NCBI GenBank assembly: GCA_028877275.1 | Contig: JAPPFP010000006.1 | Span: 576,775 to 640,774, forward strand | Direction: 5' to 3' | From: Acidobacteriota bacterium | GTDB lineage: Bacteria > Acidobacteriota > Thermoanaerobaculia > Multivoradales > Multivoraceae | DNA: 64,000 bases | Shown here: positions 5,675 through 24,789 of the stretch, in pieces | Layout: the number at the start of each line of letters is the position of its first letter | Numbering within the stretch: position 1 is the first letter of the stretch | Position numbers and translations under genes: made by a program | Notes under the pieces: generated by a model | Databases searched by the model: none | Seen by the model: the letters and a program-made list of their open reading frames with translations, nothing else | What the model was told of the DNA's origin: nothing

Positions 5675-6556
5675 TCATTCGGGGTCCGCCGCCGCGGCCG
5701 CGGCGGCCTCCTGCTCGCTGACGCGAGCGCCGCGCAGGATGTTCGCCATGTTGTAGTTGCCCTCGTGGCAGGCGAACTCGAAGAGCGGCTCGTTGCGCTT
5801 GCCCATCGGCATCCTCACCGTCCACGGCCTGACCCAGATCGGCGGATCGTCGATCGTCACCTCGTAGAGCATCACCTTGGGGCCCACCCGGGTGAAGCGC
5901 TCGGTCACCACCAGCTCGTCCGAGTTGAGGGAGTGGAACCAGGTCTGCGGGGTCCCTCGCTGGTGGCTGCCGGCGTACCCCTTGGGCAGGTAGTTCGCGG
6001 TCTCGACGACCAGCGAGTCGCCTTCCCAGCGGCCTCGCGAGTCGCCGAGCCATAGTCCGATCCGGCGATCCGGGTGGGGCGAAGCATCAAGGGGGATGAC
6101 GCGCGCCTCGTGGTACCACTCCATGACGATGACGACATGGTCCCGGTTCTGGACGAACTTGTAGTACTGGTTGAAGTTCGCCCGCACGGGCACGCCCAGG
6201 GTCACGCAGCGCTCGCCCAGGGAGCGGTCCTTCCAGGTGTCGGCCGGATGCTCCTCCAGGTACTGCTGGAGGGCGTCCCAGTCCTTCTGCGCCTGCTCGG
6301 TCAGAGCTGGAATCCCGCCTTCCGGCGGGTCGATGACCAGGTCGGAGAGTCTGGCGCCGCCGCGGGTGCCGCCGATCTCCACCCACACGCCACGCAGGTC
6401 GGGGTGGCCGTCCACGGTGCGGGGCAGGGTCCAGCCCGCTGGCGCCTCGGGCACCTCCACGGGCCCGCGAGCCCTTCGCTGAGCCGCAGCGAGGCCAGGC
6501 AGCAGCAGTACCAACACGATTCCGGCCGCCAGGCGTCGCGATGACGATCTGCGCAT
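5675..6556 (-). CDS. Secreted protein of unassigned family, paralog B (PDLRG...ERC...WEGDSLVVE...ERF...FACHEGNY)
   Basis: The signal peptide contains RR. Conserved blocks are shared with the paralogs at 4833 and 27896. The C-terminus carries FEFACHEGNYNMANILRGAR. Confidence 0.65.
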   Translation of the reverse strand: MRRSSSRRLAAGIVLVLLLPGLAAAQRRARGPVEVPEAPAGWTLPRTVDGHPDLRGVWVEIGGTRGGARLSDLVIDPPEGGIPALTEQAQKDWDALQQYLEEHPADTWKDRSLGERCVTLGVPVRANFNQYYKFVQNRDHVVIVMEWYHEARVIPLDASPHPDRRIGLWLGDSRGRWEGDSLVVETANYLPKGYAGSHQRGTPQTWFHSLNSDELVVTERFTRVGPKVMLYEVTIDDPPIWVRPWTVRMPMGKRNEPLFEFACHEGNYNMANILRGARVSEQEAAAAAAADPE

Positions 6557-6646
6557 CGAGCAGCCTCCTGCGGGTTCTCGGCCGGCGCGCCCCGTCCGGG
6601 GCGCACTCGAAGAACGGCAGTCCGGTTTTCGCGGCGCTGCGCCCTG

Positions 6647-11764: not shown

Positions 11765-14700
11765 TCAGGGGCCCTGAGGGCTCGTCGCTTCCTGCGCGGT
11801 CATCAGGTACGCGACGAGGTTCGTCACCTCATCGTCGGAGTAGGGATCGAGCAGTCCCTCCGGCATCATCGAGAGCGGGAAGTAGTCGAACGACTGGATG
11901 TCCGACTGGGCGATGACGACTTCGTCCTGGCCGACGACGCGCAGGGTCATGGAGCGGGGGCTCTTGGTGGCGACGGTGCCGGAGTAGGTGCGGCCGTCCC
12001 GTGTGGTCACCATCAGGGTCTGGTAGACGTCCTGGATGTCGCCGCTCGGGTCGAGGATGTTCGTCAGCAGGTAGTCGAGTTCCGTGCGGTTGGAACCGGT
12101 GAGGTCGGGACCGATGAGGCCGCCTTCGCCGAACATCTGGTGGCACACGGCGCAAAGCTCGGTGAACATCTGCTCGCCGTGAGCGGTGTCGGCCGCCGCG
12201 ATCGCGTCGTCGCTCAGGATCGTCGTGTACTTCGCGATGGCCGCGGCTTTCTCGCTGGAGACCCGCGTGATCGGTCCCCAGACCTCGAGAAAGCCGCTGC
12301 CGACGACCCGGTGGAGCTGGCGGGCGACGTAGGCCGGCACGTCGCGCCGCGGGACGCTTCCCTCCTTGATCGCGCCCATCAGCACGCGCCCGTAGATGGG
12401 GCGGGAGGCGAGCGTCTGGACGGCGGCGAGCTTCTCGTCCGCGTTGAAGGAGTCGTAGCGCCCGAGCAGCAGGAAGCCCGACTCCCAGCGGCCGTCGAAC
12501 GCGGCGTAGGCGCGGAGCGCGGCGATCCGCACTTCGGGTTCGTCCAGCAGAGCCGGGAGCCGCTCGAAGAGGGCCTGGTGCTGCTGGTCGGCGAGGCCTT
12601 GGATGGCCCGCCGCCGATCTTCGGGCGGAGCGCTTTCGTCGTCGAGCGTCGCGAGGAACTGGCGCGCGACCTCGACGCCGCCAAACTGCTGCTCCACCTC
12701 GAGGGCGATGTCGGCGACGTTGCGGTCGCGCTTCAGCCGGGCGTAGACCCGTTCCCAGTTGTCCGGGGGCTCGGCGTAGACCTGACCCTCGAGTCCGGCC
12801 AGCATGCCCCGGAGCAGAGCCGGCCGGGCCTCGGACCGGTCGTCGAGCGAGGTGACGAGGAACCCGAGCTCGTCCGCGTCGACCGCGCGGCGCGCGATGT
12901 TCTCCGTGAGCATCGGGATCTGGGAGGTCCTGGCCAGCCGCAACGCGCGCTTCGGGTCCTCCGGAACCAGGGGCTCGATGCCGAACCAGATCATCTTCGG
13001 GATGTTGTGGTCGTCCGCGTCGTCGCCCTTCATCACGAGGTGCTCGGCGATCGACCAGCGCACGTCGTGGTCGACGCGCTGGAGGGCCGCCGCGAGGTAG
13101 AGGCGGACGATCGGCGAAGCGTCCCGGTCCGCCAACTCGACGAACTTCTCCGTCGCGGTAGCCGGCGCGTCGTGGTCTTCGGTCAGGAGCTGGATCGCCC
13201 AGGCCCGGACGTGCTGGTCCTCGTCGTCCAGCGCTGTCATCAGTTCGTCGGACGTGAAGCCGTCGGTGACGTGGAGCGCCCACATCGCCCGCAGGCGCAG
13301 GTCGCCGTCAGGATTCGATGCGAACATCTCGCGCAGCGCGTCGTGAACCGGGGCGTCGACTTCGCCCCTGGCCGCGCGGCCCTGCAGGACGACCCGTGCC
13401 CGCCGAGCGTGCCAGGAGCTCTTCGAGAGCTGCAGCTCCACGAGTTGCTCGTTCGACATGGCCTTGACGTCGTCGTAGCGGCCCTCCCAGTCGTCTGCCA
13501 GGGACTGCTCGGGCGTGATGCGGAAGATCCGCCCGGTCTCCTTGTGCTGGACGTCGTTGCCGCAGATGTCCGCGTCGTGCCAGTCGAGGACGTAGACGTC
13601 GCCGCCCGGCCCGATCTCCATGCTGAAGCCGACCCACTGCTTGTTGTTGGCGAGCAGGAAGTCCTCTCCGTGGTGGGCGACGAAGCCGGAGCCCTTCGGC
13701 TCGAGTTCGTCCGAGAGCACCGCGTGCTCGTGGATGTTCGCCATGAAGAGCCGGCCGTAGTGCTCCTCGGGGAAGGCGTCCGACAGGTAGACGCGCGCGC
13801 CCCCGTGCGCGGAGCGGTGCCGGTGGTTGACGATCGTGCGGATGTCGCCGTAGACGTACGGATTGAAGTGCGAGCCGCCCTGGCGGTGGTAGATGCCGCC
13901 GGGGACCACGTGGAACAGGTGGGGGATCACGCAGGCGGTGATGAAGATCTGGCCCTTCGCGTCGTAGTCGATGCCCCAGGGGTTGCTGAAGCCGTGGGCC
14001 ACGACCTCGAAGCGGTCCTTCGTCGGGTGGTAGCGCCAGACGCCGCCGTTGATGTCGACGCCGTCGTACTCGAACAGGTCATCGGGGAAGGGGTCGTTGT
14101 GGCCGTAGATCGTCTCCTCGGGTCCCGGCTTGCGGATCCTGGAGGGCGTCGCGAACCCTTCGAGGCCGTAGAGCCAGCCGTCCGGCCCCCAGTGGAAGCT
14201 GTTGATCGTCTCGTGACGGTCGCGGATGCCCCAGCCGGTCAGCAGGATTTCGGCGTCGTCCATGTCGGCGACGTCGTCGCCGTCGCGGTCGGGGAGAAAG
14301 AGGAGATGCGGCGGCGCGCCGACGAAGACGCCGTCGAAGCCGACCGCCAGCGCCGCCGGGAACGGGATACCCTCCGCGAAGACCTTCTTGCTGTCGGCTG
14401 CGCCGTCGCGGTCCGTGTCCTCCAGGATCAGGATGCGACTGTCGCCCGAACCGGAGAAACCGCGGCCGCGGGTCTCGTAGTCGCGGTTCTCGGCGATCCA
14501 TATGCGGCCGCGATCGTCCCAGGCGAAGGCCATGGGCTGGGTGATCATGGGCTCCGATGCCCAGGCGTTCACCTTGAACCCGTCGCGCACGGTCATCGCA
14601 TCGACCGCCTCTTCCGGTGTCAGGAACTTCTCCTGCTTCGCTTCCCGCTGGGCGATGCCCCATAGCGATGACGTCGAGTAGGAGCCCTCGGCAGCCCCGG

Positions 14701-15712
14701 TGTACTCCTCCCAGTCCTCCGTCAGTTCGAGATCGTTCAGTTCGCCCGTGTAGACGATGAGCCGGTGGCGGATAACCTCGGTCGCGCCCTCGGGGATGTG
14801 CCAGTCGCCCATCCGTGACCGCGCCGGGCCAACGCCGAGCTGGCCGTCGACGCGCCAGGTCTGGGGGTAGCCGGCGTTCATCGGGTGGTCGAAGATGGCG
14901 ACGTGCAGGAAGTCGTCGCGGCCCTCGACCTGCATCCCGACATCGACCCACATCGCGCGCTGACCCTCGGCCTGCCGATTGCGCTGGCGGGCCGCGTTGA
15001 CGGCCTCGCCGGGGATGTCCCTGGTCCAGGGCATGCGCAGGAACATGCCGCCGTAGGACATCTCGTTGATCGAGACGTCGGTGTGCGCTTCGCCTGACCA
15101 CTCGAGATCGAGGATGAAGCGGTCTTCCTCGGCCCGCATGGACCAGTTCTGGGTCTCCGTCATGAAGGCGTTGCCTTCGGCGTCCAGCATGCCGTAGACC
15201 GTCTGCCACTGGACCTCCGTCCCAGCCTCGGTCACCACGGAAGCCGAATCGCGTCGCCAGTAGTCGCCGCCGGGGTTGTGGAAGTAGTCCCGGCCGATGG
15301 ACTTGGCGATCTCCTCCGGCTTGTCGCGGCGGTAGAACCACTGCCGGAGCGTGTCCGCGTCCATCGGCTCGCCGTTGACCCGGGTGAAGCCCCAGTAGAG
15401 CCCGGTCTGGTGCGGGTGGTGGCCCGGGCTGTACTGCGTCGCCAGTCCCTTGCCGTCGGGAGCGACGATCGGGTGCAGGAACGGCCGGTGCTCCGCGCCG
15501 GCGTTCTGGGTGACGATCGGTTCCTCTTCGCCCTCCCGGTAGATCGAGATCGCGCCGGTTTCCTCGTCCTGAACGGCTCGTAGCGGAACGGCTTGCGCCG
15601 CTTCTTCAGCGGCCGCCTCACCGGCGCCCGTGCCTTGAGTGCAGCCGGCCACGAGCGCCGCAAGTGCCAGTAGAACAATCGGTACCCATGCCGGCGCGGC
15701 CGGAACTCTCAT
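11765..15712 (-). CDS. Giant secreted multidomain protein: PmoA-like (DUF6807) N-terminal domain + glucose/sorbosone-dehydrogenase-like beta-propeller + HEAT repeats + C-terminal cytochrome c (PVC-type heme-binding CxxCH protein)
   Basis: The N-terminal domain has SPGHHPHQTGLYWGF. The propeller segment reads DDRGRIWIAENRDYETRG. The cytochrome c motif is CAVCHQMFGEGGLIGPDLTG. The start was trimmed to the ATG at 15712 (GGAGG 7 nt upstream, lipobox LVAGC). Confidence 0.8.
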   Translation of the reverse strand: MRVPAAPAWVPIVLLALAALVAGCTQGTGAGEAAAEEAAQAVPLRAVQDEETGAISIYREGEEEPIVTQNAGAEHRPFLHPIVAPDGKGLATQYSPGHHPHQTGLYWGFTRVNGEPMDADTLRQWFYRRDKPEEIAKSIGRDYFHNPGGDYWRRDSASVVTEAGTEVQWQTVYGMLDAEGNAFMTETQNWSMRAEEDRFILDLEWSGEAHTDVSINEMSYGGMFLRMPWTRDIPGEAVNAARQRNRQAEGQRAMWVDVGMQVEGRDDFLHVAIFDHPMNAGYPQTWRVDGQLGVGPARSRMGDWHIPEGATEVIRHRLIVYTGELNDLELTEDWEEYTGAAEGSYSTSSLWGIAQREAKQEKFLTPEEAVDAMTVRDGFKVNAWASEPMITQPMAFAWDDRGRIWIAENRDYETRGRGFSGSGDSRILILEDTDRDGAADSKKVFAEGIPFPAALAVGFDGVFVGAPPHLLFLPDRDGDDVADMDDAEILLTGWGIRDRHETINSFHWGPDGWLYGLEGFATPSRIRKPGPEETIYGHNDPFPDDLFEYDGVDINGGVWRYHPTKDRFEVVAHGFSNPWGIDYDAKGQIFITACVIPHLFHVVPGGIYHRQGGSHFNPYVYGDIRTIVNHRHRSAHGGARVYLSDAFPEEHYGRLFMANIHEHAVLSDELEPKGSGFVAHHGEDFLLANNKQWVGFSMEIGPGGDVYVLDWHDADICGNDVQHKETGRIFRITPEQSLADDWEGRYDDVKAMSNEQLVELQLSKSSWHARRARVVLQGRAARGEVDAPVHDALREMFASNPDGDLRLRAMWALHVTDGFTSDELMTALDDEDQHVRAWAIQLLTEDHDAPATATEKFVELADRDASPIVRLYLAAALQRVDHDVRWSIAEHLVMKGDDADDHNIPKMIWFGIEPLVPEDPKRALRLARTSQIPMLTENIARRAVDADELGFLVTSLDDRSEARPALLRGMLAGLEGQVYAEPPDNWERVYARLKRDRNVADIALEVEQQFGGVEVARQFLATLDDESAPPEDRRRAIQGLADQQHQALFERLPALLDEPEVRIAALRAYAAFDGRWESGFLLLGRYDSFNADEKLAAVQTLASRPIYGRVLMGAIKEGSVPRRDVPAYVARQLHRVVGSGFLEVWGPITRVSSEKAAAIAKYTTILSDDAIAAADTAHGEQMFTELCAVCHQMFGEGGLIGPDLTGSNRTELDYLLTNILDPSGDIQDVYQTLMVTTRDGRTYSGTVATKSPRSMTLRVVGQDEVVIAQSDIQSFDYFPLSMMPEGLLDPYSDDEVTNLVAYLMTAQEATSPQGP

Positions 15713-15838
15713 CCGCCTTCCTCCCTCGATCCCTGAAGCCTGTCGTGGAGACAAGGGCGCATCCTATCGTCCCGCCGGGGGACTGGTCGGAGGCGTCGCT
15801 CGACGTTGCCCTGACCCGGTAGGCCCGCTGGCTCGACG

Positions 15839-15854
15839 GGAGTCCCGGGACTCC
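15839..15854. promoter_or_regulatory. Perfect 16-bp palindrome GGAGTCCCGGGACTCC ~110 bp upstream of sigma-54 promoter (candidate enhancer/UAS); second palindrome GTCCGAATCCGGAC near 15882
   Basis: The palindromes were read directly from the sequence. Their position relative to the -24/-12 element matches that of bacterial enhancer-binding-protein sites. Confidence 0.35.
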
Positions 15855-15960
15855 GCTGATGTCCAGTTCCGGGCGGTGCTGTCCGAATCCGGACGCCTGA
15901 AGTCGCCGCGGCCGGGCCGCGCCGCGAGCAATCCCCGACGTTTCGGGGGTGTCCCCGGTC

Positions 15961-15975
15961 GGCACGGGGATTGCT
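15961..15975 (+). promoter_or_regulatory. Sigma-54 (RpoN) -24/-12 promoter GGCACGGGGATTGCT
   Basis: The GG-N10-GC spacing is exact and the element lies 76 nt upstream of the HlyD ATG. The operon encodes a sigma-54-dependent activator. Confidence 0.55.
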
Positions 15976-16036
15976 GGTCTGTGGTTTCGGGTCGCCTCCT
16001 TGCGGCGGTTCCGTTCCCGAAGAGCAGACACAGTTC

Positions 16037-17398
16037 ATGACCACCCCTCTCCGTCTGAAGCGCGACGTGCAGCTCGAGATTCCAGCAGACGAGCGGCCAA
16101 GGTCAGCCCTGCGGAACTTTCCGCAGGGGGATCCGTCCTCCATGGACGTGCCCCGGAGTCGGCGGAGAAGACGCGTCCTCCAGCTTGCGGGCATTGGTGT
16201 GGCGGCCGTTGTCCTGATCGCGGCGTTCGTCTTCGTGGCGAGCCTGGAGCCCGCGCTGCCTGTTGTCGATGCGGACATGGTCTGGATCGGCACCGTGGAA
16301 CGTGGCGAGTTCGTGCGCGAGGTGCGGGGCCCCGGCAAGCTCGTGCCGATGCGACATCGCTGGATCACGGCGCTGACGCCGGGTCGAGTGGACGAGATCC
16401 TCCTTCAACCGGGAACCACGGTGTCCCCCGAGACGCCCCTGTTCCGGCTGGCAAATCCAGACGTTGCGGTCGAGCTTCTCACTGTGCGCCAGCAGCTCTC
16501 CGACGCGGAGGCGGAGCTGGTGTCCCTGGACGCTTCTCTGGAGTCTGAAGAGCTGGCGCAGCGTGCACTCGTCCTCCAGGTACGTACGCAGTACCTGGAA
16601 GCCAGACATCGGGACGAAACGAACCGCGAGCTGGAGACGAAGAGCCCCGGACTGGTGTCCAGCTTCGACATGGCGCGCGGCGTGGAGTTGGTCGCTGAGC
16701 TGGAAGATCGCCTCAGGATCGAGGGCCGGCGTCTGGCCCTGCTCGACGAGTCGGCGGCGGAGCAGATCGAGGCGCGGAGCATCCACGTGGACCGTCTGCG
16801 CTCGATCGTGCGTGCGAGCGAACAGCGGGTCGATTCGCTCGTGGCGCGTGCTGGCGTGGCCGGTGTTGTGGCCGAGATCGCGGTCGAGGAAGGCCAGTGG
16901 GTACAAGCCGGCGACACCCTCGGTCGCGTGGTCCAGCCGGAGCGGCTGAAGGCGGAGCTCCGGGTCCCGCAGAACCAGGCGGAACAGGTCCTGATCGGTC
17001 AGCGGGCAGTGATCGATACCCGGGTGGACGTGATGGACGGGCACGTAGCGCGAGTTGACCCCGCCGTTCGTGACGGAGCAGTGACTGTGGATGTCTCCCT
17101 GACCGCCGAGCTTCCTGCCAGCGCGCGGTTCAACATGAGCGTCGACGGTACCGTGGTCATCGAACGAGTCGCCGACGTGACCTACATGACCCGGCCGGTG
17201 GCAGCGAGACCGGAGGAGAGGTTGGCGCTCTTCCGTCTCGACGACGGCGGGGAGGTGGCCGAGCGGGTGAATGTGCTCGTGGGCCGAGTGTCGGTCAAGG
17301 AGGTCGAAGTTGTTGAGGGCTTGAGTCCTGGTGACCGGGTGATCCTGTCGGACATGTCCGCCTGGGACGACCACGAACGTCTTCTCCTGGAGTGGTGA
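16037..17398 (+). CDS. HlyD/MacA-family periplasmic adaptor (membrane fusion protein)
   Basis: A single N-terminal TM helix is followed by coiled-coil, biotinyl-lipoyl-like and beta-barrel segments. An alternative start is the ATG at 16142. Confidence 0.8.
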   Translation: MTTPLRLKRDVQLEIPADERPRSALRNFPQGDPSSMDVPRSRRRRRVLQLAGIGVAAVVLIAAFVFVASLEPALPVVDADMVWIGTVERGEFVREVRGPGKLVPMRHRWITALTPGRVDEILLQPGTTVSPETPLFRLANPDVAVELLTVRQQLSDAEAELVSLDASLESEELAQRALVLQVRTQYLEARHRDETNRELETKSPGLVSSFDMARGVELVAELEDRLRIEGRRLALLDESAAEQIEARSIHVDRLRSIVRASEQRVDSLVARAGVAGVVAEIAVEEGQWVQAGDTLGRVVQPERLKAELRVPQNQAEQVLIGQRAVIDTRVDVMDGHVARVDPAVRDGAVTVDVSLTAELPASARFNMSVDGTVVIERVADVTYMTRPVAARPEERLALFRLDDGGEVAERVNVLVGRVSVKEVEVVEGLSPGDRVILSDMSAWDDHERLLLEW

Positions 17399-17445
17399 AG
17401 GTGGCTGGGGCGATTTCAAGGGATAACGGAGAACGGAGAGGTGCC

Positions 17446-18141
17446 ATGGCGGAGACGGTTCCCCCCATCATTCACTTGCGGGATCTCGACAAGGTGTTCT
17501 ACACCGACGAAGTCGAGACCCACGCACTCAGCAAGGTCCACCTGGACATAGAACGCGGAGAGTTCGTGTCCATCGCCGGCCCCTCGGGTTGCGGTAAATC
17601 GACGTTGCTCAGCATCATCGGTCTGCTCGATGTCGCCACGGAAGGCAGCTACGAACTCGACGGCAGATCCGTACGGAACTTCGGGCCGTCGGTGCGTGCT
17701 CGCGTCCGTAACGAAGCGATCGGCTTCATCTTTCAGGCGTTCAATCTGATCGGTGACCTGACGGTCTACCAGAACGTCGAGCTGCCGCTGGTCTATCGGG
17801 GCAGTCCCCGCAAGGAGCGCAGGCGGCGGGTCTTCACTGCCCTGGAACGCATCGGCATGACTCATCGCGCGAACCACTTCCCGGCGCAGCTTTCCGGAGG
17901 TCAGCAGCAGCGCGTCGCGGTATCCCGGGCGATTGTCGGCGACCCGCTCATCCTGCTGGCGGACGAGCCCACCGGCAACCTGGATTCGGCCAACGGGCAG
18001 GCCGTGATGCAGCTCCTCGGCGAGCTGCATGGCGGTGGAGCCACGGTCTGCATGGTGACGCACGACCCGCGCTACGCCGGGGTAGCTGGTCGCACCGTGC
18101 ACCTGCTCGATGGTCGCATCGTCGACGAGAACGAAACCTAG
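17446..18141 (+). CDS. ABC transporter ATP-binding protein (MacB/LolD-type)
   Basis: Walker A is GPSGCGKST, the signature is LSGGQQQRV, and Walker B is [15 protein letters not shown] ribosome-binding site lies upstream. Confidence 0.9.
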   Translation: MAETVPPIIHLRDLDKVFYTDEVETHALSKVHLDIERGEFVSIAGPSGCGKSTLLSIIGLLDVATEGSYELDGRSVRNFGPSVRARVRNEAIGFIFQAFNLIGDLTVYQNVELPLVYRGSPRKERRRRVFTALERIGMTHRANHFPAQLSGGQQQRVAVSRAIVGDPLILLADEPTGNLDSANGQAVMQLLGELHGGGATVCMVTHDPRYAGVAGRTVHLLDGRIVDENET

Positions 18142-18159
18142 CCGGGGAGATCCACGAAC

Positions 18160-20673
18160 GTGTTGACTGAACTCCATCACGCGGTGCGCAGCCTGGCCCG
18201 CACGCCCGCGTTCACCGCATTGGCGGTGCTGACGCTCGGAGTCGGCATCGGAGCTGCGACGGCGGCGTACACGGTGTTGAGACAAGTAGTGTTCGACCCG
18301 CTCGACTACCCGGAGGTCGACCGACTGCTGGTGCTGCGTAGCGGTGTGCCGGGCGCCGGTCCCGAGGTGGAATGGGGACTCTCGTCGGCCCAGTTCTTCC
18401 ATCTGACAGGAAACGCCGATTCGCTCTCCGTCCTCGGTGCATACGCAACAGGGTCGCAGAGTGTGTTGGCGGGCGACGGCTTCCATCGTGCCGTGGTCGC
18501 GGAGGCGACGGCCGGAATCCTGCCGCTGATCGGCGCACGTGCTCGGCTTGGTCGTCTTATCGACGAGGCCGACGACGATCCGGGCGCCCCCCTCGTGGCC
18601 GTGCTCTCCCATGGCTACTGGCAACAGCGCCTGGGTGCCGACCCCGACATCGTCGGAAAGACGATCCGGTTCGACCCAGGGATCGTCGGGCAGCCGCTCC
18701 CCGAGGCGATCATCCTGCAGAGGTTGACGTTCGAGGTCGTCGGTGTGCTTGAGCCCGGTACGTCCATCCCGGGCACATCCACCGGCGGTGGCGCCGGACT
18801 CGAGCGTCCGGAGATCTGGATTCCATACGTCCTCGATGCCGCGGGGCCCTTCTTCAACGATCACGGTCTGAACGTCCTGGCGAGCCTCGCACCCGGCCAC
18901 ACCTTGAGAGAGGCGAGAGCGGAACTCGATCTCCTCACCGGCCAGCTCGAGGAGGCCTATCCGCAGGTCTACGACGGGGACTTCGTGGAACGGTTCGGTT
19001 TTCAGACGCGCGCCTACCGCGTGAAGGACTCGGTGTTGGGAGACATCGCCCTGAGGTTGTGGCTCCTGCAGGGAGCTGTCGCTCTCCTGCTGCTGATCGC
19101 GTGGGCGAACGCGGTCAACCTCGTGCTGGCGCGAGTCGAGACGAACCGGGCGCAGTTGGCGGTTCGAACGTCACTCGGCGCTACGCGCGTCCACGTTGTT
19201 CGCTATCTGGCCGCGCAGAGTCTTCTGCTCGCGGTTGGGGGCGCGGTGACGGGTTGGCTTGCCTCCTGGTTCGTCACAGGCTGGCTCGTTCGTGCCGCGC
19301 CGTCGCTTCCGCGGCTCGACGAGGTCACGATGGATGCCGGCGTGTTGAGTTTCGTCGTCGTCCTCTCTCTGGTAGCGGCTCTAGCTCTCGCGGTGTTCGC
19401 GGCATGGCCGCTTGGAAGGGCCATCGACCTGGCGGGGGCCGGTCGGGGCGCCACGGAAGACCGGCGCCGGCGCCGGGCTCGCGCCGCGGTGCTCGTCGCT
19501 CAGGTCACGCTGTCACTGACGTTGGTGTTTGCGGCAGGGCTCGTGCTGACCAGCTTTCGGGCCCTGGCGGATGTGGATCCCGGAATCGACGCCGACGGGG
19601 TCCTCACCGCCTCCATCTATCCGAACAGCGGTCACGTGGACGGAGCAAGCTGGTGGCGAGTCGTCCAGCAGATGCGAGAGGACCTCGAGGCCCTGCCCGG
19701 CGTCAGCGATGTCGGCGCATCTTCGGCTCTTCCCATGACGGGCCGGCTGGTTGGGTGCGTGGCCCAGGAGTTCGAAGATCCTGCAGCGAGAGAACGTCTC
19801 AGCGCTTCTGATCTCAACTCCTGTGCGGTCTTCGCGCTCGCTACTCCGGGCTGGTTCGAGGCGATGGGTGTCCCGGTCCTGAAGGGCAGGGCGTTTGAGG
19901 AGTCCGACCTGGACGACCCGGCGGTTGGCGCCGTCGTCGTCAGCCGGGCCTTTGCCGAGCGCTTCTACCCGGGCGAGGATCCGCTGGGAAAGCGAATCGC
20001 TGCCTATGGTGCGCCATGGCACTCGATCGTGGGTGTCGTTGGAGACGTCTTCGGAGGTTCGGTCAACGGCGATCCGGCTCTCGTCGTGTACTACCCGTTG
20101 ACACCGATACCTGGAGCTCGCTGGGGCAGCTACGACTTGAAACTGGCGGTCCGCACGGAACTCGCCCAGCCCGGGGCCCTGGTTCCGGAGATGGCGGCCG
20201 CGGTGGAAGCCCTGGATCCCGAGATCATCGTGCAGGATGTCGAGGCCATGGCGGCAGTCGTCCGGCGCTCGATGAGCGGCACGCGGTTTGCGCTCGCGTT
20301 GCTGGCCGGAATGGCCGCGGGCGCGCTGACCCTTGCGATGGTCGGACTGTACGGTGTCGTTGTGTATCTCGCTGCGCGGCGAACGCGCGAGGTTGGCATT
20401 CGTGTGGCCCTGGGCGCGAAGAGTGGGCAGATACGGCGCATGATGGTGGCTGAAATGTCAAGGCTCGTGGCCGCGGGACTGGTCCTTGGTTGCCTGGCCG
20501 GCCTTGCTGCCGAAACGGCTCTGCGCAGCCGGCTGTTCGGGATCGCTTCCACGGGTCCGGTGGTCCTGGTGCTCGCGGCGCTCGCACTGGCGCTTGCGGC
20601 GGGTCTGGCGACCTGGGTGGCGGCCGGGCGTGCTGCCCGTGTGTCGCCAGTGGAAGCCCTGCGAATCGAGTAG
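18160..20673 (+). CDS. ABC transporter permease, duplicated FtsX/MacB-type (ADOP-like, 837 aa)
   Basis: The protein has an N-terminal TM helix plus a MacB-like periplasmic domain, and the 4-TM FtsX module is present twice. Confidence 0.85.
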   Translation: MLTELHHAVRSLARTPAFTALAVLTLGVGIGAATAAYTVLRQVVFDPLDYPEVDRLLVLRSGVPGAGPEVEWGLSSAQFFHLTGNADSLSVLGAYATGSQSVLAGDGFHRAVVAEATAGILPLIGARARLGRLIDEADDDPGAPLVAVLSHGYWQQRLGADPDIVGKTIRFDPGIVGQPLPEAIILQRLTFEVVGVLEPGTSIPGTSTGGGAGLERPEIWIPYVLDAAGPFFNDHGLNVLASLAPGHTLREARAELDLLTGQLEEAYPQVYDGDFVERFGFQTRAYRVKDSVLGDIALRLWLLQGAVALLLLIAWANAVNLVLARVETNRAQLAVRTSLGATRVHVVRYLAAQSLLLAVGGAVTGWLASWFVTGWLVRAAPSLPRLDEVTMDAGVLSFVVVLSLVAALALAVFAAWPLGRAIDLAGAGRGATEDRRRRRARAAVLVAQVTLSLTLVFAAGLVLTSFRALADVDPGIDADGVLTASIYPNSGHVDGASWWRVVQQMREDLEALPGVSDVGASSALPMTGRLVGCVAQEFEDPAARERLSASDLNSCAVFALATPGWFEAMGVPVLKGRAFEESDLDDPAVGAVVVSRAFAERFYPGEDPLGKRIAAYGAPWHSIVGVVGDVFGGSVNGDPALVVYYPLTPIPGARWGSYDLKLAVRTELAQPGALVPEMAAAVEALDPEIIVQDVEAMAAVVRRSMSGTRFALALLAGMAAGALTLAMVGLYGVVVYLAARRTREVGIRVALGAKSGQIRRMMVAEMSRLVAAGLVLGCLAGLAAETALRSRLFGIASTGPVVLVLAALALALAAGLATWVAAGRAARVSPVEALRIE

Positions 20674-20676
20674 CGG

Positions 20677-22035
20677 ATGCCGGTCGCAAGTCCACGCGTG
20701 TTGATAGCCGACGATCAGTCAGACGTCGTTGAAGCGCTGCGGATCCTGCTGAAGAACGCGGGCTTCGAGGTGCTGACTGCCTGTTCGCCGAAAGCCGTTG
20801 TCTCGACGGTCGCCACCCGTGACCTCGACTGCGTCCTGATGGATCTCAACTACACCCGCGACACCACGTCGGGGAGCGAGGGGCTCGACCTGCTCCGGAG
20901 CATCGGAAGCCAGGATCCGCACCTGCCCGTTGTCGTCATGACCGGCTGGGGGAGCGTTGACGGCGCCGTCGAAGCGATGCGACGAGGCGCGCGCGACTAC
21001 ATTGAGAAGCCTTGGAACAACGACCGCCTCCTGGCGACGCTGGCGACGCAGGTGGAGTTCGGCAGGGCCAAGCGGCACGGAGAGCGACTCACTGGCGCCA
21101 ACCGGCGAAACGCCGCCGGCATGGCGGACTTCATTGCCGAGTCGGCGGCGATGAAGCCTGTGCTCGAACTGATGGCCAAGGTCGGGCCTTCAGACGCCAA
21201 TGTACTCATTTGCGGAGAGCACGGCACCGGCAAGGACGTGGCCGCGCGGTGGCTGCACAAGGTGTCCGACCGGTCGGGTGAGTCGTTCGTGGCGGTGAAC
21301 GCCGGTGGCTTCGGCGAAGGCGTGTTCGAGAGCGAGGTTCTGGGCCACGTAAGAGGGGCTTTCACGGACGCCAGGAACGATCGCGCCGGGTGTTTCGAAC
21401 TCGCGGATCGCGGCACCCTGTTTCTCGACGAGATCGCCAACGTTCCGTATCGGCAGCAGGCGGTGCTTCTGCGGGTTCTCGAAGCCGGTGAGATCCGGCG
21501 CGTCGGCTCGGCCAAGACCCAGCGTGTCGATGTCCGGGTGCTGTCGGCTACGAACGCGAACATCGGGGCCGCAGTCGCGAACAGCGAGTTCCGCGAGGAT
21601 CTGCTCTATCGCTTGAACACGGTCGAGATACGTCTTCCCGCGCTGCGTGACAGGCGGGAGGACATTCCCATCCTCGCCGGGCACTTCCTCACACGCCAGT
21701 CCCGTCGCTACGACAAGGAGATCGACGGATTCGAGAACGATGCCCTGAAGGCGCTGCTGGGCCATCCCTGGCCAGGCAACGTCCGCGAACTGAAGCACGC
21801 CGTCGAGCGTGCCGTGCTCGTTGCCGGTGGCGGGAGGATTGCAGCCGAGGACCTTGGCCTTCGGCCGGTAGTCGCCGGGCAGGAACGTCTTGCGACGATG
21901 ACGTTGCATGAGGCCGAGGGCCTGCTGGTGGAGAAGGCTCTCGTCCGACACGGCGGGAACGTGACGCGAGCCGCGGAGGAGCTCGGCGTGAGCCGAGCCG
22001 CCCTGTACCGCAAGATGGAGCGTCATGGGCTGTGA
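20677..22035 (+). CDS. Sigma-54-dependent response regulator (NtrC/Fis family: REC + AAA+ + HTH)
   Basis: The REC domain carries the conserved Asp (LDCVLMDLNY). The AAA+ domain has GEHGTGKD and the GAFTDA motif. The C-terminus is a Fis-type helix-turn-helix. Confidence 0.9.
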   Translation: MPVASPRVLIADDQSDVVEALRILLKNAGFEVLTACSPKAVVSTVATRDLDCVLMDLNYTRDTTSGSEGLDLLRSIGSQDPHLPVVVMTGWGSVDGAVEAMRRGARDYIEKPWNNDRLLATLATQVEFGRAKRHGERLTGANRRNAAGMADFIAESAAMKPVLELMAKVGPSDANVLICGEHGTGKDVAARWLHKVSDRSGESFVAVNAGGFGEGVFESEVLGHVRGAFTDARNDRAGCFELADRGTLFLDEIANVPYRQQAVLLRVLEAGEIRRVGSAKTQRVDVRVLSATNANIGAAVANSEFREDLLYRLNTVEIRLPALRDRREDIPILAGHFLTRQSRRYDKEIDGFENDALKALLGHPWPGNVRELKHAVERAVLVAGGGRIAAEDLGLRPVVAGQERLATMTLHEAEGLLVEKALVRHGGNVTRAAEELGVSRAALYRKMERHGL

Positions 22036-23356
22036 CCGCCGGATCCTCGCGCTCGCGCTGCTGACCGGTGCCCCCGGCGTTGCGGCGGCCATCGTCCTGT
22101 TGTGGTCCGTCGGATACCCGGCTGCACTGCGCTGGTCGGTGAGCGTGGCGATCGTGGGGATGTGGGTCCTTCTCGCTTTCTACCTGCGTGGGAGCGTGAA
22201 CCGGCAGTTGAGGGTTTTCGTGCGCTTGCTCGCCGCGCTCCGGGAGGGCGAGTACTCGGTACGCGTCCCGGGTGCAAACGGGAGGGACCGTGCGGACCGG
22301 AACGATCCCTGGACGCTCACGCTGACAGCAATCGGACAGCTCGAAGAGCGTTTCCGCGACGAGCGTTGGGGCGAGGAGGAAGCGAGCAGCCTGCTGCAGC
22401 GGGTACTGGTCGAGATCGACGTAGCGGTCTTCGCGTTCGATGCCGGCAACTGTCTCCAGTTGGTGAACCGGGCCGGCGAGCAGTTCCTCGGGGGAGAGAG
22501 CTCGGAGCTGCTTGGCAGGACGGCGGCCGAGCTCGGGCTCGATGACACGCTGGTCGGCGTCGCACCCCGGACGATCGCTCGCCGGGATCCTGCCGGCTCA
22601 CGTCAATGGCAGGTACAGCGCAGCGTGATCCGCAGAGGCGGTGAACCTCTGACGCTGGTGGCGCTCACGGACCTCTCCGTTGCGCTGCGCGAAGAGGAGC
22701 GTCAGACCTGGAGGCGTCTGATCCGCGTCCTGAGTCACGAGATCAACAACTCTCTGGCGCCGATCGGGTCGATCTCCGCGAGCCTGCGTGAAGTCATTCT
22801 CCGTCAGCCGCTTCCGAGCGACTGGCGGGGCGATGTGGAGCGCGGTCTCGAAATCGTGTCGTGCCGTTCGGAATCCCTGCAGCGCTTCATGGCGGCGTAC
22901 TCGAATCTCGCGCGACTGCCGCCGCCCGAACTCACGGAGGTCGAGATCGGACCCCTCGTGCGCCGCATCGCCGCGCTGGAGACCCGGCTGCCTGTCGCGG
23001 TTCGAGCCGGACCCGCGGTTACGCTCCGCGCCGATCCCGACCAGCTCGAACAGGCGCTCGTCAACGTGATCCGCAACGCTGCCGATGCGGCGATCGAGAC
23101 AGGCGGCGGCGTCGAGGTGGGGTGGGAACGCCGCGCCGACCGCGTGAGGATGGTCGTCGAGGATGAAGGGCCCGGGCTCGCGGAAACGGAGAACCTGTTC
23201 GTCCCCTTCTACTCGACGAAGGTCGGGGGAGCCGGGATCGGTCTGGTGTTGAGTCAACACATCGCGCAGAACCACGACGGGTCTCTGGTGCTGCAGAACC
23301 GGCCGGAGGGCGGGGGCGCCCGGGCGTGTTTCGAGCTTCCTATCGGGGGTGCGTGA
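22025..23356 (+). CDS. Sensor histidine kinase (TM + HisKA + HATPase_c)
   Basis: The H-box is LSHEINNSL. The G-box is GGAGIGLVLSQHIAQ. The gene overlaps the regulator's stop by 11 nt. Confidence 0.85.
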   Translation: MGCDRRILALALLTGAPGVAAAIVLLWSVGYPAALRWSVSVAIVGMWVLLAFYLRGSVNRQLRVFVRLLAALREGEYSVRVPGANGRDRADRNDPWTLTLTAIGQLEERFRDERWGEEEASSLLQRVLVEIDVAVFAFDAGNCLQLVNRAGEQFLGGESSELLGRTAAELGLDDTLVGVAPRTIARRDPAGSRQWQVQRSVIRRGGEPLTLVALTDLSVALREEERQTWRRLIRVLSHEINNSLAPIGSISASLREVILRQPLPSDWRGDVERGLEIVSCRSESLQRFMAAYSNLARLPPPELTEVEIGPLVRRIAALETRLPVAVRAGPAVTLRADPDQLEQALVNVIRNAADAAIETGGGVEVGWERRADRVRMVVEDEGPGLAETENLFVPFYSTKVGGAGIGLVLSQHIAQNHDGSLVLQNRPEGGGARACFELPIGGA

Positions 23357-23370
23357 CTGCCCGCGACTTT

Positions 23371-24789
23371 CTACGAGCCCTCACTCGGAAAGTAGTACGT
23401 CATCCCGTCGAAGTCGATCGTCCACGACCCCTTGGGCCAGAGGTACTGGTGCGAGATCAGGACGTCCGCCATGAAGCCGGAACTCCAGAAGAAGTCGCTT
23501 TCGACGAAGACGTTGCCGAGCGCCTGGGCCGGTCCGCTGGGCAGACCGTCGAGGCCGTGGGACGCGATCGGGGACCAGTAGTAGGGCGTTCCCTCGATCT
23601 CGGTCTTCTCGAGCTCGAGGAACTCGACGGTTTCCTCGACGATGACGAGCGGCATGCTCGCGGCAAGGCCCGAATCCAGGAAGTAGTTCATCCCCGGGTG
23701 GCCGTTCAGGCTGCCCTTCGCGAACATCAGGTGGGTGCTGGTCATGTAGAAGGGCGCTTCGACGGGCGGCGTGCCGCCGAAGGTCTCCATCACGTCGGCA
23801 AGGGCCTCGGCGCTTCGCTCGCGGAAGGTGATGCGGCGGTTGTCGTAGTCGACCGTCGTCAGGAACTGCCTGAGGATCTGCGTGGTCAGCACGCCGTCGG
23901 AGGTCTGGCCGAGGGCCTTCCAGGTCGCGCCGATGACCGGCACGTTGGAGAGCGTCACGTCGCCCATCGTGACGGTCGCGGCGACGCCTAGCGGTTCCTC
24001 GACCGTCTCGCCCCTTGTGTAGGCGTAGCGGGCTTCGCGGTTGGCGAGGGTCGGCAGGCCGAGGCGCTCGTAGATGCCCTTGTCGAGGTAGAGCCGGTCG
24101 CCGCCGGTGTCGAGGATCAGGTTGACCGCCTCGCCGTTGATCTCCAGGGTGACGATCGGCAGGGCGCCGGGTTGCGTGATGTCGTTCGTCATCGGCAGGT
24201 GGGCGATTCGCTCGTCGCCGGTCCATTCGATGCCGTAGGGCTCGCCGTCGAAGGCCTGCATGAAGGTGAGCAGGCTGGCCGAACCTTCCGCCGTGTCCGG
24301 CGCGGGAAGCTCCCGGGCCCTTGTGACGTCGTTGGTCTGGTAGTGGGCCAGCGTCAGCCCGCGGAGGGCCTGGGTGGCGGCGTCCGAGCCCTCGTCGGCG
24401 AGTTCTAGAAGGCGCTCGTTCAGGGTCACAGCCCGGTCGTAGTCGCCCAACAGGTACGCCGTTCTGGCCGCGAGCCGAAGATCGCCCGCGTGGCACGTGG
24501 TCGTCGTGCCCAGGGGTGCGATGACGTCGTTGGCCTCCCAGATGTCGCCCAGCTTGAACAGGACCTCGGCGTAGGCGCGGCGGACCTCGTCGTTGTCAGG
24601 GTCGGCCTCGAAGGCCTCCTGGCGAGAGGGAAGAGCCGCTTCGACGTCGCCCCGGAGCCTCGGATTCCACTCCTCCACGCCGGTGCCGGACAGTTCGCCG
24701 CAGGAAAGGCGGTCGCCTTGACAGCTCCAGCTGGTCAACCCGGTGGCCAACGTGACCAGCGTGACGACGAGCGGCGCAGCGTTCCTCAT
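23371..24789 (-). CDS. Secreted bilobed retropepsin-like aspartyl protease with N-terminal TPR-like region
   Basis: Two Asp-protease half-sites are present, LILDTGGD and FLDSGLAAS. There is a signal peptide. Confidence 0.7.
   Translation of the reverse strand: MRNAAPLVVTLVTLATGLTSWSCQGDRLSCGELSGTGVEEWNPRLRGDVEAALPSRQEAFEADPDNDEVRRAYAEVLFKLGDIWEANDVIAPLGTTTTCHAGDLRLAARTAYLLGDYDRAVTLNERLLELADEGSDAATQALRGLTLAHYQTNDVTRARELPAPDTAEGSASLLTFMQAFDGEPYGIEWTGDERIAHLPMTNDITQPGALPIVTLEINGEAVNLILDTGGDRLYLDKGIYERLGLPTLANREARYAYTRGETVEEPLGVAATVTMGDVTLSNVPVIGATWKALGQTSDGVLTTQILRQFLTTVDYDNRRITFRERSAEALADVMETFGGTPPVEAPFYMTSTHLMFAKGSLNGHPGMNYFLDSGLAASMPLVIVEETVEFLELEKTEIEGTPYYWSPIASHGLDGLPSGPAQALGNVFVESDFFWSSGFMADVLISHQYLWPKGSWTIDFDGMTYYFPSEGS

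Follow-up and report, generated by a model that had tools for sequence, protein, structure and literature searches.

Tandem upstream activator sites accompany the sigma-54 promoters of the best-known enhancer-dependent systems, NtrC at glnAp2 and DctD at dctA, and the enhancers of the NtrC family show dyad symmetry and a two-turn spacing. The zraSR and atoSC-type sigma-54 systems are positively autoregulated two-component operons. Genes of the ADOP permease family are typically 'orphans' that lack an adjacent ABC ATPase. In the Bce modules of Firmicutes, the BceAB transporter goes together with BceRS and the regulator induces the transporter genes (PMC11009047). In the literature searched here, no MacB/ADOP or Bce-like module under sigma-54 control is described, and the main text of Francke et al. 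2011 (PMC3162934) makes no mention of Acidobacteria, HlyD or efflux. Here we analyse the region upstream of a MacB/ADOP-type efflux operon in a window of 64,000 nucleotides (the whole stretch of DNA that was examined; 67.9% G+C) from an Acidobacteriota bacterium. The reading that best explains the data as a whole, to which we assign a probability of about 75%, is that positions 15860-15975 would form the control region of an operon for an HlyD adaptor, an ABC ATPase, an ADOP/MacB permease, an enhancer-binding protein (EBP) and a kinase.

The closest genome-level relatives of the window are Thermoanaerobaculia and Candidatus Multivorans MAGs, and its HlyD adaptor is identical to a protein (P0001) that NCBI assigns to an Acidobacteriota MAG. 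The intergenic region at the head of the operon is divergent and 324 bp long (15713-16036). On its left lies a lipoprotein-like gene of 1315 aa on the minus strand, with its start at 15712; it carries DUF6807, DUF7133 and HEAT domains and a cytochrome c domain. On its right, five tightly packed genes fill 16037-23356 of the plus strand. The first encodes the HlyD-family periplasmic adaptor (16037-17398; Pfam HlyD_3 and HlyD_D23), in which M36 (16142) is an alternative start and is invariant in alignment A2. It is followed by a MacB/LolD-type ABC ATPase (17392-18141 as the longest ORF, with calls in relatives ∼18 codons shorter; Pfam ABC_tran), whose NCBIfam matches to DarD and MacB both lie under their cut-offs. 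The third gene (18160-20673) encodes an 837-aa permease with two copies each of the Pfam domains MacB_PCD and FtsX, and its score of 636.4 bits against TIGR03434 (cut-off 622.3) makes it a member of the ADOP family. It thus passes the cut-off for a 'duplicated orphan permease' but is not an orphan, as it is flanked by the ATPase and HlyD genes and by the two-component genes. The latter encode an NtrC-type response regulator, which is the EBP (20677-22035; Pfam receiver, sigma-54 AAA+ and Fis-type HTH), and a histidine kinase without a periplasmic domain (22025-23356; recognised by HATPase_c, sequence and hydropathy). Our scan of 16000-23800 returned no sigma-70-like promoter within the operon and a single terminator-like match, weak and within the HlyD gene, compared to 3.4 expected. 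A sigma-54-like match within the permease gene, CGGCACGCGGTTTGCG at 20277-20292, might have served the regulators as an internal promoter but was dismissed as a chance match, because in relatives it varies like coding sequence (TTT/TTC, TTTTCG).

The initial annotation had proposed, from this DNA alone, a sigma-54 promoter with exact GG-N10-GC spacing 76 nt before the first gene of an operon that itself encodes a sigma-54 activator. These sequence features were confirmed: the activator is the product of 20677-22035, and the -24/-12 element is CGGCACGGGGATTGCT (CGGCAC-N5-TTGCT) at 15960-15975 of the plus strand. Its GG (15961-62) and GC (15973-74) are separated by exactly 10 nt, and the element lies on the correct strand, with the first in-frame ATG (16037) at a distance of 76 nt from GG and of 61 nt from TTGCT. 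It agrees with TGGCACG-N4-TTGCW at 11 of the 12 specified bases, and it is the sole match with at most one mismatch in the 64-kb window. By chance, 0.37 such matches are expected per window and at least one was present in 29 of 100 shuffles; the match is therefore not significant on sequence alone, and it derives its weight from its position and its conservation. By the usual -12 convention, we predict that transcription starts near 15986 (plus strand), 12 nt past the C of GC, which would give a leader of ∼51 nt.

To assess conservation, syntenic loci were fetched via the HlyD protein and the five window proteins were mapped onto each of them (the L-numbered loci below); column identities were taken from an alignment of eight distinct acidobacterial upstream regions. 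The module of HlyD, ABC ATPase, permease, EBP and kinase recurs in Acidobacteriota, in gammaproteobacterial MAGs (several of which bear sponge-style sample names) and in Gemmatimonadota, and the EBP is 60-97% identical across all module loci. All 10 distinct acidobacterial relatives retain the promoter at the operon. It is kept in L001-L010 and L015 despite differing upstream neighbour genes: L003 has the same divergent neighbour as the window (DUF6807/DUF7133), and in L005-L008 the neighbour is an AraC-type gene or a gene without assignment. In the eight-locus alignment, the mean identity of the promoter columns is 0.94 compared to ∼0.72 in the spacers. About 11 gammaproteobacterial loci (L011-L020 and L032) keep TGGCAC-N5-(T/C)(T/C)GC 5' of the HlyD gene, and four Gemmatimonadota loci (L021, L037, L053 and L058) have TGGCACG-N4-TT(C/T)C 5' of a TolC-like gene.

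This pattern bears on the simplest objection to the promoter, namely that the -24/-12 match arose by chance and that a promoter of sigma-70 type which escaped recognition drives the operon. The objection draws on the 29% of shuffled windows that contain a match with at most one mismatch, and on the RpoN box, which a regular-expression search found neither in the window nor in the 89 fetched loci. On the other hand, the element is near-invariant in every acidobacterial and in most gammaproteobacterial orthologous loci while the flanking spacers drift, the scan of 15500-16300 for sigma-70 promoters returned no site, and the EBP encoded in the operon has an intact sigma-54 contact loop. We therefore consider a chance match extremely unlikely, and the conservation in orthologous loci backs the sigma-54 call of the initial annotation. 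Given that the EBP and the promoter are conserved, the genome presumably carries rpoN.

Several observations concern the immediate surroundings of the promoter. In L006 (5085-5117), and also in L004, L007, L009 and L010, the stretch from TTGCT to the first ATG of the HlyD gene, which is conserved, is shorter by 47 nt, so that 14 nt are left; the predicted leader in these relatives would thus be ∼4 nt and the transcript near-leaderless, unless translation begins at the invariant M36. A terminator-like match at 15957-15979 merely overlaps the sigma-54 promoter and was set aside. There is also a perfect 11-bp inverted repeat, AGCAATCCCCG/CGGGGATTGCT (15927-15937/15965-15975), whose right arm falls on the -12 element and which surrounds a smaller hairpin, CCCCGA-CGTT-TCGGGG. 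We did not retain this repeat as a possible operator, or as a hairpin that covers the -12 element: conservation of the left arm is only partial (∼0.72), and the minus strand has no suitably spaced GG. A search of 15600-16200 against Rfam found no known RNA element and only a sub-threshold snoRNA match (E 0.44).

Upstream of the promoter, the alignment singled out two imperfect dyads. The distal one, TGTCCAGTTCCGGGCG (15860-15875, plus strand; candidate site A), is centred ∼93 bp upstream of GG and has a column identity of 0.92; the proximal one, TGTCCGAATCCGGACG (15880-15895, plus strand; candidate site B), is centred ∼73 bp upstream of GG and has an identity of 0.95. Their starts are exactly 20 bp apart. 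Both follow the consensus TGTCCG-N4-CGGACA, from which site B deviates at one position and site A at three, and no other tandem pair of this kind occurs in the window (0.37 expected). In all acidobacterial loci, site B and GG are 71-74 bp apart (∼seven helical turns), and the sequence of this spacer drifts. Of the 87 sequences scanned, 24 have sigma-54 promoters that are preceded by two copies of the same dyad at a spacing of 20-22 bp. These sequences belong to three phyla in which the rest of the intergenic DNA cannot be aligned. The proximal dyad is centred 51-87 bp upstream of GG in the gammaproteobacterial loci and in some Gemmatimonadota loci. Under strict criteria, the tandem pair was not found in most Gemmatimonadota loci, in which a TolC-like gene precedes the HlyD gene and the -12 element is altered. 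In L058 (1785-1920), L053, L037 and L021, tandem dyads are followed by TGGCACGGAACTT(T/C)CA, so that the -12 element has TC or CC, not GC; the Gemmatimonadota promoter that goes with the TolC-like gene sits ∼1.8 kb upstream of the HlyD gene. As with enhancers of NtrC type, the dyads lie in the range of ∼70-150 bp upstream and in helical phase, and they co-occur with the regulator across genomes. The conserved imperfect dyads at 15860-15895 are likely to be the enhancer sites for the activator.

In choosing these dyads we depart from the initial annotation, which had named two perfect palindromes as the activator sites. The first of them, GGAGTCCCGGGACTCC, is indeed an exact 16-bp palindrome (15839-15854). 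Perfect palindromes of this length, however, number three in the window compared to 2.98 expected from first-order Markov simulations, and nowhere in the region is conservation lower than in this one, with a mean column identity of 0.47 versus 0.92-0.95 for the dyads. A deletion of ∼22 bp removes it from the closest relatives (L001, L002 and L015, with HlyD proteins 93-94% identical) and leaves everything downstream of it intact; L003, L005 and L008 have degenerate forms of it, and L004, L006, L007, L009, L010 and the other phyla lack it. The second repeat, GTCCGAATCCGGAC (15881-15894), is not perfect: it is an imperfect dyad whose arms, GTCCG and CGGAC, measure 5 bp each and enclose four nucleotides, AATC. 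It stands as a conserved candidate site, since it lies within site B, but it represents only half of a tandem pair whose other member, TGTCCAGTTCCGGGCG, 20 bp upstream, had been missed. Conservation in relatives thus holds for the second of the two repeats and fails for the first.

Could GGAGTCCCGGGACTCC still be the main activator site, with GTCCGAATCCGGAC as the second one? The palindrome is perfect and lies ∼114 bp upstream of GG, its centre is 21 bp from that of site A and hence in helical phase with both dyads, it includes GTCC and GGAC half-sites, and degenerate versions persist in L003, L005 and L008. Those half-sites, though, are arranged as GTCC-N2-GGAC, 4 bp closer than the GTCC-N6-GGAC of the conserved dyads, so that the dimer geometry of the dyads would not suit the palindrome. 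Together with its chance-level frequency, its low identity, its deletion in L001, L002 and L015 and its absence elsewhere, this makes such a role very unlikely. The palindrome probably lies outside the functional enhancer and is most likely incidental, and we retain the tandem dyads as the candidate sites.

The DNA around the dyads has features of its own. Adjoining site B is a conserved block, GCCTGAAGTCG (15895-15905, plus strand), with a mean identity of 0.94 in the acidobacterial loci; it is not clearly present in the other phyla. Between enhancer and promoter, GCCTGAAGTCG and GCGAGC (15924-15929) reach identities of 0.94-0.96 among acidobacterial relatives, which matches the dyads. Farther out, the relatives show an insertion hotspot in the divergent intergenic region; the insertions are small, and all of them lie upstream of the dyads: L001 and L002 carry a HicB-like UPF0150 gene (L001, 6315-6551), and L004 carries a MazE/PIN toxin-antitoxin pair (5870-6568).

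We next consider which protein would bind the dyads. The EBP of the operon contains a receiver, a Sigma54_activat domain (PF00158, 8e-58), an AAA lid and an HTH_8 domain, and it is the sole EBP in the window. Its sigma-54 contact loop reads GAFTDA, not GAFTGA (context GHVRGAFTDA), in 44 of 44 orthologs from three phyla. GAFTDA is among the natural variants expected to keep activation according to a study of Desulfovibrio EBPs (PMC4641369), and judged from its conservation it is a family signature of a known tolerated variant. The protein reaches the cut-off of no named NCBIfam equivalog (the best, PEP_resp_reg, gives 366 bits versus a cut-off of 503), which makes it a member of an unnamed EBP family. 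Its C-terminal HTH contains a segment, LG[VL]SR.ALYR[KR], that is near-invariant across the three phyla, and this is consistent with the conserved dyad.

The most informative loci in this respect are L017 and L019, in which the module is split: the permease-EBP-kinase genes and the HlyD-ABC genes form separate operons, and both of these have tandem dyads and a promoter of their own. In the separate permease-EBP-kinase operon, the tandem dyads are followed by TGGCACGG-N3-TTGGCA. This arrangement supports both the recognition of the dyads by the module's own activator and its positive autoregulation. In L019, a third set of tandem dyads with a TGGCACG-N4-TTCGCA promoter (13323-13420) precedes another gene with an ADOP-like N-terminus, which suggests a multi-operon regulon in that gammaproteobacterial relative.

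A different arrangement is conceivable, in which the promoter is sigma-54-dependent but the dyads are bound by some other protein (a repressor, a nucleoid protein or an activator whose gene lies elsewhere) and the operon's own activator acts on different targets. The additional conserved blocks, GCCTGAAGTCG and GCGAGC at 15924-29, would fit such an arrangement, as they extend the constraint beyond the dyads. Yet the dyads accompany the EBP-containing module across three phyla and through the operon splits, the module has no other conserved DNA-binding protein, no second EBP is encoded in the window, and the position, symmetry and two-turn spacing of the dyads are those of NtrC-family enhancers. 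We regard a different binder as unlikely and infer that it is the operon's own activator that binds the dyads.

With this activator as the binder, the circuit can be outlined as follows. Sigma-54 RNA polymerase would bind CGGCAC-N5-TTGCT (15960-15975) as a closed complex. The probable inducing signal is a compound that acts on the membrane or envelope and that the pump handles. On induction, the adjacent kinase would phosphorylate the operon's own activator, whose dimers would bind sites A and B, 20 bp apart on the same face of the DNA, and then oligomerise. The activator would reach the polymerase by looping out ∼70-90 bp and would use ATP to open the promoter, with transcription starting near 15986. 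Because activator and kinase are encoded on the same transcript, induction would feed back positively. The self-activating module that the initial annotation had envisaged is thus supported by the conserved dyads at enhancer distance and by the split operons of L017 and L019. A purely sigma-54-driven loop requires basal expression of activator and kinase to start, and no source of it was found. As for the input, the kinase has two N-terminal hydrophobic segments ∼10 residues apart without a periplasmic domain, and this hydropathy is conserved across the three phyla. By analogy with Bce modules, such a layout suggests intramembrane or transporter-coupled sensing.

An efflux operon of an uncultured Acidobacteriota (Thermoanaerobaculia-like) gains an assigned promoter, a probable enhancer and a putative autoregulatory circuit, and the upstream repeats that matter are corrected from a perfect palindrome to imperfect dyads. 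The motif that results is testable: two copies of the dyad TGTCCG-N4-CGGACA at a spacing of 20-22 bp, with a -24/-12 element 50-90 bp downstream. It accompanies an unnamed EBP family with MacB/ADOP-type exporters in three phyla, and can be used for regulon prediction in MAGs. The understanding of sigma-54 regulation is unchanged by the result. More tentatively, we raise the possibility that Acidobacteriota, sponge-associated Gammaproteobacteria and Gemmatimonadota share an undescribed module that combines a tripartite MacB/ADOP exporter, a sensor-less intramembrane kinase and a GAFTDA-bearing NtrC-type activator. If so, this module would be a diderm, sigma-54-driven counterpart of the 'flux-sensing' Bce resistance modules of Firmicutes, and the dyad occurring twice together with the -24/-12 element would be its predicted regulon motif.

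Finally, we compared the locus with the known systems. By analogy with NtrC at glnAp2 and DctD at dctA, its promoter-enhancer architecture appears to be of the standard, classical sigma-54 type: both of those systems and this operon have the GG-N10-GC core and two in-phase dyads ∼70-150 bp upstream, and the activator has, like NtrC and DctD, a receiver, an AAA+ domain, a Fis-type HTH and a histidine kinase partner. It differs from them in the sites themselves (TGTCCG-N4-CGGACA with 20-bp spacing), in the target, which is a MacB/ADOP-type efflux operon instead of nitrogen or dicarboxylate genes, and in the activator, which scores below the cut-offs of all named NCBIfam equivalogs and in which GAFTDA replaces GAFTGA. 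The operon resembles zraSR and atoSC in that regulator and kinase would be under a promoter activated by the regulator. Unlike in those systems, the structural genes of the pump and the regulators share one transcript here, and in the relatives L017 and L019 the genes are distributed over two or three operons that all have an enhancer and a promoter of their own. Unlike a typical ADOP gene, the permease gene shares its operon with an ATPase and an adaptor. With the Bce modules (PMC11009047), the locus shares the combination of an FtsX/MacB-type ABC transporter with a two-component system and a two-helix kinase with essentially no extracellular domain; correspondingly, the paired MacB_PCD and FtsX domains are those expected of an FtsX-family permease with a large extracytoplasmic domain, and they go together with a 2-TM kinase without a sensor domain. 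The regulator and the hosts, in contrast, are not those of Bce modules: in place of an OmpR-type regulator in a Firmicutes host there is an NtrC-type EBP in diderm phyla. Whereas the OmpR-type regulator of Bce modules acts at a sigma-70 promoter, the EBP would act at a sigma-54 promoter, and the exporter includes an HlyD adaptor in a diderm tripartite layout, in hosts from Acidobacteriota, Gammaproteobacteria and Gemmatimonadota.
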